The notes under the pieces were generated by a model that ran no database searches, was not told the DNA's origin, and was given only the letters and a program-made list of their open reading frames with translations. A stretch of DNA of 64,000 nucleotides, taken from Candidatus Heimdallarchaeota archaeon. Its GTDB lineage: Archaea; Asgardarchaeota; Heimdallarchaeia; Heimdallarchaeales; Heimdallarchaeaceae. The position numbers and the translations under genes were made by a program. This document shows positions 1,568 to 8,295 of the stretch, piece by piece (position 1 is the stretch's first letter; every line of letters starts with the position of its first letter). Location of the stretch: NCBI GenBank assembly GCA_021399395.1, contig JAAFKJ010000001.1:1-64000 (forward strand). The letters run 5' to 3'.

Positions 1568-2107
1568 ATGGAAAGCTCTGAAGAAGGATTTTTCTCATCC
1601 CAAAGAGGAAAGAGATTCGCTAAATTCTTTATAATAGGTACAATAGGTTACGGACTCAATTTTCTTCTTCTCTATCTATTTAATTTGCTATTAGGAATTA
1701 CCATTGTCAAAGATGTTGATGTGTCATTCTGGATTTTTGCGATAAATCAGGGGGTTATAGCTTCTTTACTATCCATGGCAATAGTTTTTGTCTTTACCTT
1801 TGTAATGAATAAATTTTGGACATTCAGAGGACAAGGTTCAGAATTTCAACCCAATACACTTTTTCAATTCTTTCAATTCACTCTGATTGGATTAGTAGGT
1901 TATGCTATTTACACTGGTATCATGATGATTCTTCATGGATCATTATTATGGAATGAGTATCTAGCTATGACTATCGCATTTTACACTGGTCTAATCAATA
2001 ACTTTGTATGGAATGATATCTGGACTTTCAATCCTAAGCTCATAGAGAAAAGGAAGCAAAAAAGGAAGAAAGATGAACAAGTAGAAATTGAAGAACTGAA
2101 AGTTTAA
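1568..2107 (+). CDS. GtrA family small membrane protein (putative lipid-linked glycan translocase)
   Basis: Four hydrophobic segments; KFFIIG, NKFWTF and NFVWNDIWTF GtrA-like repeats. Confidence 0.8.
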   Translation: MESSEEGFFSSQRGKRFAKFFIIGTIGYGLNFLLLYLFNLLLGITIVKDVDVSFWIFAINQGVIASLLSMAIVFVFTFVMNKFWTFRGQGSEFQPNTLFQFFQFTLIGLVGYAIYTGIMMILHGSLLWNEYLAMTIAFYTGLINNFVWNDIWTFNPKLIEKRKQKRKKDEQVEIEELKV

Positions 2108-3075
2108 TTTTTGTTGTACAAGGGTTTTAACGATTGATTAGGATATCTAGGAGAAAATTTAAGTAATGGATAGTTTTTTGCTGAGAATCTAGCCCATAAG
2201 AATTTTATTTCTTTTTCTTCGAGAGGTCTTCCTATGAACCTTAAAAGAGTCCTTTCATCCAGATTTATTTCCATTTCTTCAAGTTTTGAAGAAAGTACTT
2301 TTGTATTTGAAATATCTATTTCCTCTACTCTCATAGGAAAACTCTGAATATCTTGAAATTTGACATCTACATGATTATGGTCAACATCAATGACTATGAA
2401 GCCTTTTGATTCAATTATTTCCATGAAACTTGTTCTAATCAATGATCCAATGTAGTGGACTTTTTTATTCTGAATTTTCTGAGCTCTGTGTATATGACCT
2501 GACAAAGTAACTATCAGATTATCTGGAAAATCACTTATTTTCAGAGTGTCGGTTCTATTGGTAAATATGTGATTATGAGGTCCAAAACTTGCTCCGTCAA
2601 ACAACTGATGACATAGAACAATATATTTCCTTTTGGGATTTTTAATTAGTCTCGTTCTAACTTTTTCAAAAACACTCCGTGGGTTTTTAGATTCAAATGG
2701 AAAACCTATGACCGACACATCATCAAACTGAACCTCTGTAAATTTATTCATAAAATGAATTCTTTTTGAGAGATGATTCAGAAGTGTTTCTGGGAGATGA
2801 GATCTATCATGATTCCCAGGGATTGCTATGAAATCGATATCGTTTCTTGTGAAATCTTCTATGATATTGTAAGCTCTTGATACTAACCCTTTCTTTGGTT
2901 GTGAGCGATTGAACATGTCTCCTCCATGTAGAACTAAATCAACTTGTTTTTGCTTTGCTACTTCTAATACGTTAGAAAAAACCTCAAAAGTTCTATCTAT
3001 CTGTTCTTTCTTTGTTTGAGATGTCCTACCATACTCATAACCAAAATGAGTATCAGATAAAGCTAGTATTCTCAT
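2104..3075 (-). CDS. Mre11/SbcD-like calcineurin-fold metallophosphoesterase (DNA repair exonuclease)
   Basis: SDTHFG, GGDMFN, PGNHD, LCHQ, SGHIH and YIGS motifs. Start moved to ATG at 3075 (MRILALSD). Confidence 0.8.
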   Translation of the reverse strand: MRILALSDTHFGYEYGRTSQTKKEQIDRTFEVFSNVLEVAKQKQVDLVLHGGDMFNRSQPKKGLVSRAYNIIEDFTRNDIDFIAIPGNHDRSHLPETLLNHLSKRIHFMNKFTEVQFDDVSVIGFPFESKNPRSVFEKVRTRLIKNPKRKYIVLCHQLFDGASFGPHNHIFTNRTDTLKISDFPDNLIVTLSGHIHRAQKIQNKKVHYIGSLIRTSFMEIIESKGFIVIDVDHNHVDVKFQDIQSFPMRVEEIDISNTKVLSSKLEEMEINLDERTLLRFIGRPLEEKEIKFLWARFSAKNYPLLKFSPRYPNQSLKPLYNKN

Positions 3076-3165
3076 TGTTATCACTTGATGTCCAATGAAA
3101 TAAGTATAAAAGCAAACAAAAATTGAGATAGCCCATAAACAATAAGAAGAAGTCATTTCATTTTG

Positions 3166-4653
3166 TTAAGTAACTTCTGTTTCTTTTAAGTTGCATATCC
3201 ACAATGGTTTTCTTTCAATAAACAGGTAGAAATTTTCAGCGAAAGTATCATCGCTATCATAGACTTTGTTCAACTTTTCATTTACAATAAAGACCTTCAT
3301 CTTCTCTTTTATTTCGATTTTCAGGAAAGAATCAACATCTAAAACAAAAGTATTCTTCGCGACTAGATTTTCTAGAAATTCATACACGCTTTGACCTTTC
3401 TTGGTGAAGTGGATTACCCATCTATTATTATCAATGAATGGTCCAGCTACAACATCTACATGCTTTGTATACTGTTTCAGAAATTTTAGAGACTCATTTG
3501 AAGTAATTTCAGGTCCTTCCTTCCGAATTGAAATCTGAGGTCTAACATCCATTAAAGAGATAAAAAGCCCATAATATTCTTCAGAAACGAAAGTTTTAGA
3601 CCTCTCCAAGATGTAATTGTTATTGAAAAGTTCAGCCTGAAAAGCATTCTTGATGGATAATGCTTTTTGCCAGCATATTTCAGGTTCCTTGAAATTACGA
3701 TTGATTGCTAAGATGATAATTTCTCTGCCAGAATTTGCGATTTTTCGAACAAGATCTTCATAAGATGGGATTTCGAAAAACAAATCTTCAAAGAAGCTAA
3801 TATCTGGGCTCATCAAGAAAGTGTTTGCTGCTGCAATTAAAGATGTAAATTGATCAACTGACACATCGGCAGCGACATTGTCTTTAGGATTAAGCGGATC
3901 AGGAACATAAAGTGGATAATATTTCAGTAGCATTTTACTAGTAAGTAGATCTACATCTTCCATTTTCTCTGTATTTCGTTTAAGATCAATGATTGTTCTT
4001 GGATGCCATTTACAGATTCCTTGGATTGCTTCTCTAAAAGTACCATAGAATAGTATTAGAAGCTCACATAGATACCCGTTAAATCCTATTGCACCAATTT
4101 CACTTCTATATACACCAATTGTTTTAACAAATTTTTTGAGAAGAAGGACTTCATTTCTGTTTTCTTCTTTCATGTGAGTGATTACGTATTGTGAGTGCAT
4201 AGGGATTAAATCAAAAATCGATTCGGGTTCTTCACCTGGAGAAACCTCAAATCCAACAAATAGATTAATGAGCTCACCTTCTACATTTAGTCTTAGATAA
4301 GGTAGTTTACCAGTATGTTTGGTAATCTCGATTAGATTATTTTTTATTCGATCTTTTCTTAATCGTTTTTCCAAAGCATCTAAGATTTGATGAACCTTGG
4401 ATTTATCTGATTTTTTAAGGATTAAGAGCAGATCAAAAGAATCATCCTCACTGAGATAGGTTTTTCTAACAAATGACCCTTGATTTTCAACTCGCGCTAC
4501 ATATCCGAGAGCATTTAAGTCCAGCATTATTTTTTCTTTTAAGATTGAAAGCAACTCTCGAATTTCTTCATGGTGTTCCCATTGAACTTGAATAATTTCT
4601 AGAACCTTTTTCTCTATGCTTGCTGAAGCATTTATTAGATCTTTCTTACTCAT
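3166..4653 (-). CDS. cca: Class I (archaeal) CCA-adding enzyme homologue with a degenerate active site
   Basis: GSFVRKTYL, LLKKFVKTIGVY, GFNGYLCELLI, DPLNPKDNVAA and R-x-GP motifs; adjacent to thpR as in the usual archaeal cluster. Confidence 0.8.
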   Translation of the reverse strand: MSKKDLINASASIEKKVLEIIQVQWEHHEEIRELLSILKEKIMLDLNALGYVARVENQGSFVRKTYLSEDDSFDLLLILKKSDKSKVHQILDALEKRLRKDRIKNNLIEITKHTGKLPYLRLNVEGELINLFVGFEVSPGEEPESIFDLIPMHSQYVITHMKEENRNEVLLLKKFVKTIGVYRSEIGAIGFNGYLCELLILFYGTFREAIQGICKWHPRTIIDLKRNTEKMEDVDLLTSKMLLKYYPLYVPDPLNPKDNVAADVSVDQFTSLIAAANTFLMSPDISFFEDLFFEIPSYEDLVRKIANSGREIIILAINRNFKEPEICWQKALSIKNAFQAELFNNNYILERSKTFVSEEYYGLFISLMDVRPQISIRKEGPEITSNESLKFLKQYTKHVDVVAGPFIDNNRWVIHFTKKGQSVYEFLENLVAKNTFVLDVDSFLKIEIKEKMKVFIVNEKLNKVYDSDDTFAENFYLFIERKPLWICNLKETEVT

Positions 4654-4665
4654 TTTATCACCTTT

Positions 4666-5223
4666 TTAATTGGCTCTTGTTTCATATAGAATTGTATATT
4701 GAGGCCCGGAAGGACTTAATTCTGATTTTTTTAGTTTAATAGAGCTAATTTCTTGCTCTCCACATTTGAACTCAGAAAGGTTATTTATAACTTTAATTAG
4801 TTCCGACTTATTTTGAATGGATTTGACTCTTGCTATTGTCAAATGAGGTTTAAACGCCCTTGAATCAACTTTATAGCCAAGATTTTTTAGTTTAGTTCTA
4901 ATTTCTTTCTGAATATTTCTCAATAATTCAACATTCCCTTTCATTTCACAATAAATTACTCTGATGTACTTTTCATTGGGTAGTATACCAGGTTGATTAA
5001 TAGTTAATTTAAATTTGGAAAATTTTGTTTCACTTAAAATCTGTGATACTTGCTGAATCTGCAGTTCTGATATTTCACCCAAAAAATCTAAAGTTGAATG
5101 AAGTATTTTTGGATTAACCATCTTTAGATTTGCACTCAACTCCTGCAGTTGTCGCTGAATAGTAACAATGTTTTCAACTATTTCTTCATTATTGAAATCT
5201 ATAGAAATGAATGTTCTTACCAT
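4666..5223 (-). CDS. thpR: RNA 2',3'-cyclic phosphodiesterase (2H phosphoesterase, LigT/ThpR)
   Basis: RTFISID start, two HxT motifs (HSTLDF, PHLTIAR), SELSPSGPQY. Start moved to 5223. Confidence 0.9.
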   Translation of the reverse strand: MVRTFISIDFNNEEIVENIVTIQRQLQELSANLKMVNPKILHSTLDFLGEISELQIQQVSQILSETKFSKFKLTINQPGILPNEKYIRVIYCEMKGNVELLRNIQKEIRTKLKNLGYKVDSRAFKPHLTIARVKSIQNKSELIKVINNLSEFKCGEQEISSIKLKKSELSPSGPQYTILYETRAN

Positions 5224-5327
5224 TGTAGGATAGAATTTTTTGCCATTTAATAAGTTTTTATTAGAGAACAGTTTGCTAGACATTGACAACATTTTTAACC
5301 ACAAAGGTTCTTTCCCCACTGAATTAC

Positions 5328-5897
5328 ATGACAGAACCCAGAGCCAAAGTACTTGGAGTAACTGGAATGCCAGGTTCAGGAAAGAGCAAATTTGCTCAAT
5401 TTGCTGAGGAACTAGGCTACCATACAGTTATTATGGGTGATGTTGTTAGAGCAAGAGTTGTTGAAGAAGGGTATGAGTCTACTCCAGAAATGAGCAGAAA
5501 GTATATGGTTCAATTGCGTGAAGAAATGGGTGAAACTGCAGTAGCTCATTTGACATGTATAGCGATAGACAAATTGGTTGATGAGGGGAAAAATTTTCTA
5601 GTAATCGATGGGATAAGAAGTCAAGCTGAAGTTGTACATTTCAAAGAACATTTGGGAAATTCTTTCGTAATTATAGCAATTCATGTTGGCCCAGATTTGA
5701 GATTTAAACGTTTAAAAGCAAGAGGGAGAAAGGATGCTCCAGTAACTGAGAGTGATTTTATCAAAAGAGATGAATCTGAGTTAGAACTTGGTTTGGGGGA
5801 AACTATCGCATTTTCAAATCATTTTATTCCTAACAATAAATCTTTAGAAGATTTCAGAGAAAAGTCACTGAGTTTATTGAAAGAATTAGAAGGGTGA
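5328..5897 (+). CDS. UPF0200 P-loop kinase (dephospho-CoA/NMP kinase-like)
   Basis: TGMPGSGKS, MGDVVR, IDGIRS, RGRKD, RDESEL. Start moved to ATG 5328. Confidence 0.8.
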   Translation: MTEPRAKVLGVTGMPGSGKSKFAQFAEELGYHTVIMGDVVRARVVEEGYESTPEMSRKYMVQLREEMGETAVAHLTCIAIDKLVDEGKNFLVIDGIRSQAEVVHFKEHLGNSFVIIAIHVGPDLRFKRLKARGRKDAPVTESDFIKRDESELELGLGETIAFSNHFIPNNKSLEDFREKSLSLLKELEG

Positions 5898-6352
5898 GAG
5901 TTTTGAATCTTAGAATTAGTATTAGAGTACCTTTTTATTCAACAGAAGATAAATCGAAGCTGGAAATCATAATTAGTAATTTGTTAGGTAATCTACCTCC
6001 ACTTACTGAGAAAAAGGAAAATGATGTTGTTTATCTTGTTGCTGATGAAATCAAGATAGATAGCTTGCGTCTGTTTTTCAAAAATATAAGGCAAAATGAG
6101 ATTCTAGATACAGTACGAAAGTATGTTTTGATTTACCCTCAAGAAGGAAAAGTCATTTTTAATATTCACAAACAAGCCTTAACGGCTGATAAAATAGCTG
6201 TTATTACAAAAAACACTACCTCTCCACTTGGAAATGTAGAATTAATTATTCACACCAAAGATACAGAAAAATTCCTAAATTGGTTTGCTCCAGAAACTTT
6301 TGAAGGGAAAATCATTGAACCAAGAAAATTCAATGAAATTTTCAATCTTTAG
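5894..6352 (+). CDS. UPF0201/DUF54 RNA-binding-like protein
   Basis: TEDKSK, IRQNEILDTVR, HKQA, SPLG, WFAPETFEGK; overlaps the UPF0200 stop. Confidence 0.8.
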   Translation: MRVLNLRISIRVPFYSTEDKSKLEIIISNLLGNLPPLTEKKENDVVYLVADEIKIDSLRLFFKNIRQNEILDTVRKYVLIYPQEGKVIFNIHKQALTADKIAVITKNTTSPLGNVELIIHTKDTEKFLNWFAPETFEGKIIEPRKFNEIFNL

Positions 6353-7262
6353 CTTTTATTTTTATTCGTAATCCATCGTGGGCTAAGATACTATTAGGAA
6401 AAATTTTCTTACTCTCAGCTAGCGAATGTTCTAAGTCGGAATGTAACTGTGAGATATGTGTCAAAACAAGTTTCTTTACCTTGGCTTTCTTTGCGATCAA
6501 AGCTGCATCAGTACAAGTAGAATGACTATATTTTGTTGCTCTTTCTGTTTCTTCTGGAGGATAAGTTGCATCATGAATTAACAAATCAGCTTTCTTAGAA
6601 TGCTCAATCACATTTTCATCAAATTCGGTATCCCCAGTTATTACAACTTTCAAGTTTTTCAAAGGAATTTTATCAATTACTTCCTCAGGATTTATTTTTC
6701 TGCCATCAATATCTATCGAATTACCTTCTTGCAGAAGCTTCCATAGTTCTCCCCGTGGTATAGCAAGGGCTTTAGCTTTTTCTGGATTGAATTTACCTGT
6801 TTTAGGTTGAGTTTCTACAATATATCCTACACTTTCAATAGAATGTTTAACTGGAAAAGATTTGACCACCAGATCTTTATTTTCTAGTACAGTACCTCCA
6901 GTAGTCTCTTTAACAGAAATTTCAAACTCGGGTCTAAATCTATAAGCTAAAAATAATATCGATAGAAATTTCGAAGTCCAAGAGGGACCTATAATAGTTA
7001 TTGGGGTTTTGATGTTGAAGAAATTCCTAGTTGTCAGAAGACCCATTAATCCTAATGTATGATCAGAATGCAGATGGGTGAGTAAGATGGTCATTTTTCG
7101 AAGACTTATTTTATTCTTAAGCATCTCAATTTGTGCTCCTTCGCCTAAGTCGACAATCAGCAGGTTTCCTCTATACTTAATTGCTACTGAACTTTGTCTT
7201 CTCTCGATTTGAGGAGGAGCAGAAGAAGTGCCAAGAAATGTTATCGTTATCTCATCAGACAT
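6342..7262 (-). CDS. rnz: Ribonuclease Z
   Basis: FLGTSSAPP, DLGEG, THLHSDH, exosite GELWKLLQEG, TGDT, HDATY, HST, LTHIS. Confidence 0.93.
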   Translation of the reverse strand: MSDEITITFLGTSSAPPQIERRQSSVAIKYRGNLLIVDLGEGAQIEMLKNKISLRKMTILLTHLHSDHTLGLMGLLTTRNFFNIKTPITIIGPSWTSKFLSILFLAYRFRPEFEISVKETTGGTVLENKDLVVKSFPVKHSIESVGYIVETQPKTGKFNPEKAKALAIPRGELWKLLQEGNSIDIDGRKINPEEVIDKIPLKNLKVVITGDTEFDENVIEHSKKADLLIHDATYPPEETERATKYSHSTCTDAALIAKKAKVKKLVLTHISQLHSDLEHSLAESKKIFPNSILAHDGLRIKIKAKD

Positions 7263-7266
7263 TTTA

Positions 7267-8295
7267 TCACCTCAGTACAAGAATTCTCCTTGTTAGAGAT
7301 TTATGAATTACACAATCTATTAATGTTACGAGCTTATAGTCTGTTTTTTCAACTATTTTTTCTGGAGCAACAGCTGCAGGAGCACTAAAAACCAAGAATC
7401 CGTTGGATTTTAGTACTTTTCGAGCGTCAATCAAGAACTCATAAACTAAATCAGATAAATCCGCACCATGAGTAGAAGACTGTAGAGAATACGGAGGATC
7501 TGTTGCTATTGCGTCTACAGCCTTAATAGCTAGATAACGAGAATCACCACGATAGATTGATGTGTTAAAATTCTTAAATTGAGATAAATTCTCTTTAGAA
7601 CCTTGAATTGCAAAACCGTCTAAATCACTCCCAATTGAATAAGCTCCCAGCTCAAATGCTTCTAACAGAAAACCTCCACCTCCACAAAATGGATCAAAGA
7701 AAGTATCACCTTGCTTAACTCTGGAAAGATTAACGATTGCTCTCGCAAAATCTGTTCTCATAGCTCCTGGCCTAAAATAATCTCTCACCCCTGGTTCTCT
7801 TACTGCATATTTTTTTCTATCTTGAGACCAGAGTTCTAATCCTAAAAATAATTTCTTCTTGAGTAAAACAGCTATAAATGAATAATATGGTGCTTTAAGA
7901 TTCGCATCCAATTTAGCTTCCTCAAATTTGTGATAAATATGACCCCCTAGAATTCGTTCAAGGTCAACTGATCGAAGTTTAATCTCTTTTCTACCTATTT
8001 TGCGCACTCTAACTGCAAAAGATTTGTTTGGTTCTATTTCTAGATGATTGTGTTCAGCCTTAAAGTGGACTTTATCTTCAACAACCTCCCCCACATCAGT
8101 AAGAAGTATCAGTGCATGTAAAAACGCACATCTTGCAGCTGCTACCGTTGGATCTTTTTCTGAATCAAAAATAATTATCTGATTTTCCTCGAGGACATTT
8201 TTGCATACAATTCCTTCGGCTTCTAAACAGGCATAGAATTCCTCATAGCCTATAGGAAGAAAGTGTCCACAGATAAAGGCAAGATATTTTTTCAT
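7267..8295 (-). CDS. trm11: tRNA (guanine(10)-N2)-methyltransferase, THUMP plus Rossmann methyltransferase
   Basis: THUMP-like SFAVRV; ARAIVNL, DPFCGGGGF, TDPPY, HKSLTR. Confidence 0.88.
   Translation of the reverse strand: MKKYLAFICGHFLPIGYEEFYACLEAEGIVCKNVLEENQIIIFDSEKDPTVAAARCAFLHALILLTDVGEVVEDKVHFKAEHNHLEIEPNKSFAVRVRKIGRKEIKLRSVDLERILGGHIYHKFEEAKLDANLKAPYYSFIAVLLKKKLFLGLELWSQDRKKYAVREPGVRDYFRPGAMRTDFARAIVNLSRVKQGDTFFDPFCGGGGFLLEAFELGAYSIGSDLDGFAIQGSKENLSQFKNFNTSIYRGDSRYLAIKAVDAIATDPPYSLQSSTHGADLSDLVYEFLIDARKVLKSNGFLVFSAPAAVAPEKIVEKTDYKLVTLIDCVIHKSLTRRILVLR

Follow-up and report, generated by a model that had tools for sequence, protein, structure and literature searches.

A selected but predicted catalytically inactive class I CCA-adding enzyme homologue next to thpR in Heimdallarchaeaceae

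Why would an archaeal lineage keep a CCA-adding enzyme that has apparently lost residues needed to add CCA? The question is raised by a gene on the first 64,000 nucleotides of contig JAAFKJ010000001.1 (assembly GCA_021399395.1) of a Candidatus Heimdallarchaeota archaeon, a member of the Heimdallarchaeaceae; this whole stretch of DNA is referred to here as the window. The gene is an intact 495-codon open reading frame (ORF) at 3166-4653 on the reverse strand and encodes a full-length homologue of class I CCA-adding enzymes, denoted CCA1*. We consider it highly probable, for the reading as a whole, that CCA1* is a dead but selected class I copy, that a class II enzyme carries out CCA addition, and that the class I copy is retained for a non-catalytic job.

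The exchange of a dead class I enzyme for an active class II enzyme is already known for a sister species from a 2026 preprint by Cassidy, Doktor, Betat, Morl and Prohaska (bioRxiv 10.64898/2026.05.29.728689). According to the main text of the preprint, Heimdallarchaeaceae encode both CCA enzyme classes. Ca. Heimdallarchaeum aukensis has a class 1 enzyme in which the essential arginine is replaced with asparagine; this enzyme was completely inactive on yeast tRNA-Phe, the key substitutions being common to other members of the family, and the class 2 enzyme of the same organism added the complete CCA. That main text makes no mention of the carboxylates, thpR, an operon, synteny or tRNA genes, topics on which its supplements could bear, and the word 'purifying' occurs in it once, in the Introduction, with regard to CCA-adding enzymes generally. 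New in the present analysis are the co-variation of gene-encoded CCA with the class I gene, the shift of the dead enzyme to a net acidic composition, and the survival of ThpR in families without class I.

The class I homologue and its former catalytic positions

The alignment of CCA1* to the TIGR03671 (cca_archaeal) model runs end to end (model positions 1-405 of 410), with a score of 239 bits, under the curated NCBIfam equivalog cut-off of 281.3. Pfam searches at E up to 0.01 detected the neck domain PF09249 (1.8e-31) and the C-terminal domain PF21133 (8.1e-6), and gave no match to the nucleotidyltransferase head domain PF01909. The Archaeoglobus fulgidus enzyme (AfCCA) was matched with an E-value of 1.3e-27, and the residue equivalences given below were counted along this HMMER alignment. 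The scaffold motifs that the original prediction regarded as kept, GFNGYLCELLI and DP..NVAA, are both present, as are all the sequence strings that it quoted.

By their source names, the proteins closest to CCA1* belong to Heimdallarchaeota or Heimdallarchaeaceae. The top 37 hits (P0001-P0037) are 54-100% identical to CCA1* and are all without a PF01909 annotation, and beyond them the identity falls to 29-30%; in the library clustered at 50% identity, this clade comprises one full-length cluster and four fragments. Individual columns were compared between 42 members of the clade and 93 'active-type' sequences, a label given to class I sequences outside the clade by position and not by assay. 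The latter consist of 16 sequences from other Heimdallarchaeia families and 77 of the hits P0038-P0120, each of at least 430 amino acids (aa).

In AfCCA, Glu59, Asp61 and Asp110 are described as the catalytic Mg2+ site, and Arg224 as forming hydrogen bonds to the base of the CTP or ATP that comes in (PMC3925840). The column of the first carboxylate is D/E in all 92 active-type sequences that have a residue there (1 of the 93 has a gap) and is acidic in none of the 42 clade members (T16 S15 V8 I2 A1); in CCA1*, the residue aligned with Glu59 is Ser72, the substitution originally reported. In strand 2, the (D/E)-x-D signature is replaced by Ser72-Phe-Asp74, in which the second carboxylate, conserved in 42/42 clade members, is retained. 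The Arg129 column of the DRTPFH motif is Arg in 93/93 active-type sequences and in 0/42 of the clade (L/S/Y/F/I/K); CCA1* has Leu149-Ile150 at Arg129-Thr130, and the alignment confirms that FDLIPMH stands in place of DRTPFH. The base-selecting Arg224, again present in 93/93 active-type sequences, is replaced throughout the clade (D27 E9 N4 M1 S1), a change (Asp258 in CCA1*) that the original prediction had overlooked. Asp221, likewise invariant in the 93, is mostly Asn in the clade. Overall, 54 columns are at least 90% conserved among the active-type sequences; of these, 34 persist in the clade, 4 persist in part and 16 are gone, among them Arg129, Arg224, Asp221 and Pro113 (AfCCA numbering). 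CCA1* is predicted to be catalytically dead and unable to add CCA because the first metal-binding carboxylate and two invariant arginines are lost.

The claim that two of the three carboxylates are missing needs to be amended. Both substitutions are present, but only Ser72 is diagnostic: the Asp110 column, where CCA1* has Asn130, is N48 D31 E14 among the 93 active-type sequences and N32 H10 in the clade. Asparagine at the third 'carboxylate' appears to be ordinary in active-type enzymes and not diagnostic of death, and the loss would be better worded as one carboxylate plus two invariant arginines. Active-type sequences with Asn at this position include P0042, P0084, P0088, P0095 and P0097, and one of the Asn-bearing sequences is named CCA tRNA nucleotidyltransferase, from a Nitrososphaerota archaeon. 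Judged by these alignments, the textbook carboxylate triad does not appear to be universal among class I CCA enzymes, a correction that matters for calling class I enzymes dead from sequence.

An enzyme of altered chemistry, one of the options originally put forward, is unlikely because the residues at the former catalytic positions vary within the clade, as listed above; such variation marks positions freed from constraint and not a site that has been re-tooled. CCA1* does retain Asp74, Asp148, Gly59-Ser60, His153, Lys173 and Tyr182, of which those from Asp148 onwards in this list are taken here to be the equivalents of the triphosphate-binding residues of AfCCA.

An AlphaFold2 model of CCA1*, built from a 43-row alignment, has a predicted local distance difference test score (pLDDT) of 88.8 and a predicted template modelling score (pTM) of 0.83, with all four domains (head, neck, body and tail) kept. 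Its 12 best matches in the PDB are all AfCCA chains, aligned over 455-491 columns with E-values down to 4.6e-32 and template modelling (TM) scores up to 0.76. The model also bears on whether CCA1* could still be an enzyme, with Glu69, Asp70, Asp71 or the Asn/His at position 130 restoring a metal site that would serve CCA addition or some other nucleotidyl transfer. Such a site would fit the acidic residue at Asp70 in 42/42 clade members, the retained residues just named, and the fixed residues and two fixed insertions that are specific to the clade. However, residues 64-71, which include Glu69-Asp70-Asp71, form a loop in the model, the strand beginning at Ser72, and the old catalytic positions vary freely. 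Moreover, an orthologue is reported to be completely inactive in CCA addition (bioRxiv 10.64898/2026.05.29.728689), and both single-contig genomes of the family share the Glu-Asp-Asp stretch and have, at the Arg224 position, the Asn that the preprint describes. We regard a rebuilt catalytic site as very unlikely.

The fold was also compared with that of the eukaryotic ribosome-assembly factor Utp22/NOL6, of which CCA1* might be an archaeal forerunner. Utp22 is described as homologous to class I CCA enzymes (PMC3794860), the host lineage is close to eukaryotes, and Utp22 chains are among the structure matches. Nevertheless, Utp22 comes only 16th in the list (E 2.6e-12, TMq 0.49, 13% identity), on a par with poly(A) polymerases, with AfCCA far ahead (E 4.6e-32, TMq 0.67). 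The Nrap family (Utp22/NOL6) has no match in CCA1* in the Pfam search at E up to 0.01, and CCA1* is a single 495-aa module. The link was rejected as unsupported, and descent of Utp22 from such a protein is extremely unlikely.

Table 1. Coordinates of the gene, of key codons and of associated features in the window
Feature	Position	Strand	Remarks
CCA1* gene, predicted catalytically degenerate class I CCA-adding enzyme homologue	3166..4653	(-)	495 aa, ATG to TAA
Asp258 codon, position of base-selecting AfCCA Arg224	3880..3882	(-)	alignment
Leu149 codon, position of AfCCA Arg129 (DRTPFH motif)	4207..4209	(-)	alignment
Asn130 codon, position of AfCCA Asp110 (third carboxylate)	4264..4266	(-)	alignment and codon check
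Asp74 codon, retained second carboxylate (AfCCA Asp61)	4432..4434	(-)	alignment and codon check
Ser72 codon, position of AfCCA Glu59 (first catalytic carboxylate)	4438..4440	(-)	alignment and codon check
thpR (RNA 2',3'-cyclic phosphodiesterase), upstream operon partner	4666..5223	(-)	TIGR02258; start probably at an internal ATG
tRNA-Gly(CCC), encoded 3' CCA	17725..17798	(+)	sole tRNA in the window

Selection on the class I copy and the distribution of the two enzyme classes

The survey covered 31 species genomes of Heimdallarchaeaceae (family f1) among 83 genomes of the class Heimdallarchaeia, the other families being denoted f2 to f7. The ratios of nonsynonymous to synonymous substitution rates (dN/dS), calculated by the Nei-Gojobori method for the closest pairs, are 0.032, 0.044 and 0.091 for three family pairs (dS 0.8-1.8 for clade pairs, the middle value being near saturation), against 0.10-0.21 for the ten closest pairs of active f7 enzymes. 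None of the 28 class I matches in the family contains an internal stop, 87 positions are invariant across the 42 clade sequences, and for each of the four domains conservation inside the clade equals or exceeds that inside f7. Two insertions, Asp101-Arg102 and Asp233-Val234-Asp235, are fixed in at least 40 of the 42 sequences, and so are Gly115, Val133, Gly187 and Asn192, which replace near-invariant active-type residues. In a quick IQ-TREE tree that included 30 randomly picked sequences of the 77 active-type ones from outside Heimdallarchaeia, the clade (10 genome-derived sequences, CCA1* among them) has an SH-like approximate likelihood ratio test (SH-aLRT) support of 100. Its stem, at 1.93 substitutions per site, is the longest internal branch, and the branches that follow within the clade are short; the position of the clade relative to other class I enzymes has a support of only 74.

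CCA1* is thus under strong purifying selection and is not decaying. A decaying pseudogene without function would be compatible with the lost catalytic residues and with a score under the family cut-off, but that reading is effectively refuted already by the dN/dS of 0.03-0.09, the frame intact in 28/28 matches, the invariant positions and the short branches after a long stem.

The distribution of the two classes was traced with TIGR03671 as the marker of class I and the PF01743 head domain as that of class II. Heimdallarchaeaceae have one class I match in 28/31 genomes, none of the 31 genomes having one over the cut-off, and PF01743 occurs once in 27/31, including both single-contig genomes. 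Class I alone was detected in f7 (over the cut-off in 12/12 genomes; class II 0/12), in f2 and f3 (277-323 bits in 4/4; class II 0/4) and in f6 (a partial match of 172 bits in 1/2; class II 0/2), that is, PF01743 is found in 0/18 genomes of these four families. In f4, no class I match exceeds 31 bits in 12 genomes and class II is present in 11/12; in f5, class II is present in 19/22, with one full class I match. Among the Heimdallarchaeia families surveyed, the two classes occur together only in Heimdallarchaeaceae, and there the class I copy is degenerate.

The single f5 class I enzyme is encoded on contig C101 of genome G047 (L009:1097-2476), scores 361 bits and comes from a genome without a class II match. 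Its place in the tree is within the f7 clade; it is therefore probably not native to this genome and probably represents a mis-binned contig or a transfer.

The original prediction had offered, among its possibilities, a pseudo-nucleotidyltransferase and an inactive partner of a second CCA paralogue. The core of this proposal, an inactive enzyme beside a second CCA-adding enzyme, was right, but the second enzyme is of the bacterial-type class II and is not a paralogue; the count of cca paralogues that had been recommended as a check gave the single class I match in 28/31 family genomes reported above. The class II ORFs of two relatives contain the GGxVRD, DxD, RRD and EDxxR motifs and align to solved class II enzymes at E 2e-32; they lie at L015:1039-2469 (-) in genome G022 and at L016:1183-2574 (+) in genome G005. 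The class II enzymes of the family fall far under all the CCA equivalog cut-offs of NCBIfam (141.9 against 438.8 in one case), and the solved structures that match them best are chains deposited under the name poly A polymerase (4WBY, 1VFG, 4WBZ), taken here to be the A-adding enzyme of Aquifex aeolicus; for one orthologue, the preprint nevertheless describes addition of the full CCA.

The assembly that contains the window is 81.8% complete; PF01743 had no match in it, and tblastn with the class II proteins of the two relatives returned nothing (best E 0.81). We attribute this null to an assembly gap, and it is not evidence of class II loss. The distance between the class I and class II genes is about 90-100 kb in three relatives. 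The corresponding region of G022 maps, in order, to the end of the window's contig (C174), C119, C178, C116, a gap and C181, and the gap between C116 and C181 spans the position of the class II gene. A public contig of 10,766 nt from run X2 spans the whole of C116 (3 differences in 3,413 bases; 99.9% identical) and extends 3,393 bases past it; a contig of the same size and depth is colinear with the class II region of G022, with one piece inside the ORF. A 3,814-nt contig from run X1 is likewise colinear, with two pieces inside the class II ORF, the pieces of the bridging contigs being 77-84% identical to G022. Because X1 and X2 may be the source samples, these contigs demonstrate the assembly gap and do not amount to independent confirmation.

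Gene-encoded CCA, thpR and the proposed non-catalytic job

The single tRNA gene of the window had been noted to encode its own CCA, and this holds for tRNA-Gly(CCC). The genome-wide check proposed along with that observation showed that all evaluable tRNA genes of the window's genome encode CCA (37/37). Predictions by aragorn end in CCA in 37/40 cases, the three exceptions being two implausible intron-bearing calls without an Rfam match and one gene cut by a contig end. By Rfam coordinates, CCA directly follows 35/37 evaluable matches, and the remaining 2 are truncated model alignments with the CCA 3-4 nt further on. Counts for genomes of all seven families are given in Table 2. As a proxy applied to all 83 genomes, we calculated the share of T-loop motif hits with CCA at the right distance among all motif hits; the shares, whose denominators include a few chance motif hits per genome, are 0.75 in f1, 0.50 in f2, 0.87 in f3, 0.76 in f6 and 0.77 in f7, and 0.06 in f4 and 0.14 in f5.

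Table 2. tRNA genes with encoded CCA in individual genomes
Genome	Family	Class I gene	Encoded CCA
G005	f1	dead (predicted)	30/30
G001	f1	dead (predicted)	6/6
G072	f7	live	25/30
G034	f3	live	6/6
G031	f2	live	5/6
G069	f6	partial hit	6/6
G057	f5	none	0/28
G045	f4	none	0/22
G037	f4	none	0/6

Encoded CCA tracks the presence of the class I gene, live or dead, and not that of class II. The co-variation rests on about two independent losses and may be a coincidence. In the f4 and f5 genomes of Table 2 (loci L094-L121 and L124-L145), CCA is encoded on 0/56 of the tRNA genes checked. Eukaryotic tRNA genes do not encode CCA, and f4 and f5 thus resemble eukaryotes in this respect.

This pattern would be explained if the dead enzyme had been selected to read or protect gene-encoded CCA ends without catalysis, for instance by setting the 3' trailer cut or shielding the CCA. 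Such a role would account for the joint persistence of encoded CCA and the class I gene, CCA being kept with a live or dead class I gene and nearly absent without one both by direct check and by the proxy. It would also agree with the preserved four-domain fold and with the nearby genes for RNase Z (identified by Pfam in the orthologue) and a THUMP methyltransferase. On the other hand, the correlation spans about two independent losses only, the proxy denominator contains chance motif hits, and the protein has lost its net positive charge. Nor is a reader required, given that many bacteria keep encoded CCA beside an active class II enzyme. We judge this role to be unlikely.

A separate observation concerns a tRNA gene outside the window, at G000 C37:6458-6533 (-). 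It is 76 nt long, with an encoded CCA and a Gln-tRNA-like acceptor end, scores 49.2 bits against Rfam and clusters with tRNA-Gln(CTG) and tRNA-Gln(TTG); its anticodon, TTA, would read the UAA stop, and its position 37 is U, which is unusual. TAA is the commonest stop of the long ORFs in the window (18/37), so there is no sign of genome-wide reassignment.

The canonical position of the gene next to thpR, also recorded in the original prediction, is borne out: thpR lies 12 nt upstream on the same strand. Its product scores 142.3 bits against TIGR02258 (cut-off 65.7), and both HxT motifs (His42-x-Thr44 and His127-x-Thr129) are invariant in 18/18 aligned orthologues. The gene adjoins a class I gene in the window and in 17/17 loci scanned in other genomes. 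Within the family, it immediately precedes the class I gene in the same orientation, both in the window and in 9/9 other loci, with spacings from a 38-nt overlap to a 29-nt gap and with stop and start overlapping or abutting in 5.

This arrangement raises the possibility that the dead enzyme is a non-catalytic adaptor or regulator of co-translated ThpR in the healing of damaged RNA 3' ends. Besides the tight spacing, the intact HxT motifs of ThpR and the opposite charges of the basic ThpR and the acidic CCA1* would suit a partnership. The same adjacency, however, is seen at the active class I genes of f7 (4/4), f2 (1/1) and f3 (3/3, two of them divergent) and may be inherited order only, and ThpR persists in families that have no class I gene; co-loss of ThpR with class I was looked for and not found in f4 and f5. 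The adjacency around active class I genes and the survival of ThpR without class I together indicate an inherited operon, with dependence of one protein on the other not shown. A ThpR partnership is doubtful on present evidence.

The median net charge is -5.5 for the 10 genome-derived and -8 for the 32 database sequences of the clade, and +8 and +10 for the active enzymes of f7 and f3, respectively. ThpR shows no lineage shift in net charge and is basic (+1 to +9).

In the reading that we favour, a class II enzyme would have taken over CCA addition and repair, the class I enzyme would have lost its chemistry in the ancestor of Heimdallarchaeaceae, and the dead copy would then have been kept for a non-catalytic job. 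Because its co-transcription with thpR persists, the copy would most likely serve to bind an RNA 3' end or a partner protein during the maintenance of tRNA ends; what the job consists of is the weakest step. Several points weigh against this reading. The acidic turn of the clade speaks against an RNA-binding role, the tRNA-binding scaffold of the original prediction included, and against tRNA binding having simply been retained. The order thpR-cca is ancestral, and ThpR is kept without class I in f4 (11/12) and f5 (19/22). With regard to catalysis, Glu69-Asp70-Asp71 directly precede the strand carrying Ser72 and Asp74, the position of Asp70, acidic throughout the clade, is so in 55/93 active-type sequences, and one of these three residues may reach the metal site; the assay in the preprint concerned one orthologue on one heterologous tRNA. 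Finally, the class II enzyme of the window's genome is known only via the bridging contig, from pieces 77-84% identical to those of a relative.

The puzzle is that the working class I enzymes in a sister family are less tightly conserved than this disabled one, and the co-variation of encoded CCA with the class I gene and the acidic surface shift of the dead enzyme provide two testable leads. The swap from an archaeal to a bacterial-type CCA enzyme sits in the closest archaeal relatives of eukaryotes and bears on the assembly of the eukaryotic translation apparatus, a point already made in the preprint.

Other genes around the locus were annotated by a Pfam scan of 90/125 neighbouring ORFs, which left out the ORFs of loci L004, L006, L007 and L010-L014 and two overlapping ORFs (in L027 and L032). 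The metallophosphoesterase gene at 2104-3156 was considered as a third operon member and rejected: it directly follows the class I gene only in the window and G022, is displaced in G013 and is absent from that position in the other loci. On the far side of thpR, the window contains neighbours at 5283-6352 (+) and 6342-8295 (-). Two genes, one P-loop kinase-like (AAA_17) and one RNA-binding (PF01877), are divergent from thpR; they are followed by an RNase Z-like metallo-beta-lactamase gene and then a THUMP-type methyltransferase gene, as read from the translation. In f1 and f3, this pair of genes is again found next to thpR-cca, and f7 likewise has PF01877 there. Seventeen genomes of the family, 16 of them in the window's genus, contain a further ThpR-like ORF that is divergent and scores 40-59 bits, under the cut-off (frames of 190-238 aa), for example at G022:C14:143175-143642 and G016:C105:41820-42287; it was not found in the window's own assembly.

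Comparison with known systems

The closest known counterpart of CCA1* is the inactive 'Heim12' CCA1 of the preprint, which comes from the same organism family and falls in the same protein clade (support 100), the other members of which are 54-87% identical to CCA1*. As described for Heim12 CCA1, another residue takes the place of the base-selecting arginine, the sequence carries insertions that canonical enzymes lack, and the family has a class II enzyme. Unlike the H. aukensis protein, which has Asn at the arginine position (a state seen in 4/42 clade members), CCA1* has Asp there.

CCA1* shares with AfCCA (PDB 1R89, 3OVA and others) the four-domain fold, the GS motif, the second carboxylate, the equivalents of His133, Lys152 and Tyr161, and the core motif of the neck domain. 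It differs from AfCCA, to which it is 23% identical, in the replacements of Glu59 with Ser, Arg129 with Leu, Thr130 with Ile, Asp221 with Asn and Arg224 with Asp, in its two clade-specific insertions and in its net acidic charge.

Utp22/NOL6, a factor of the eukaryotic 90S pre-ribosome, likewise has a class I CCA fold without the catalytic residues and exemplifies non-catalytic reuse of this fold. Unlike CCA1*, Utp22 has two modules in tandem and a length of about 1,100 aa.

With respect to tRNA genes, the window's genome resembles Escherichia coli, in which every tRNA gene carries its own CCA and the CCA enzyme is used for repair alone. Given that every evaluable tRNA gene of the window's genome encodes CCA, CCA addition would be needed here, too, for repair and not for synthesis. 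Unlike E. coli, however, Heimdallarchaeaceae have two enzymes of unrelated classes, the ancestral one of which is predicted to be dead.

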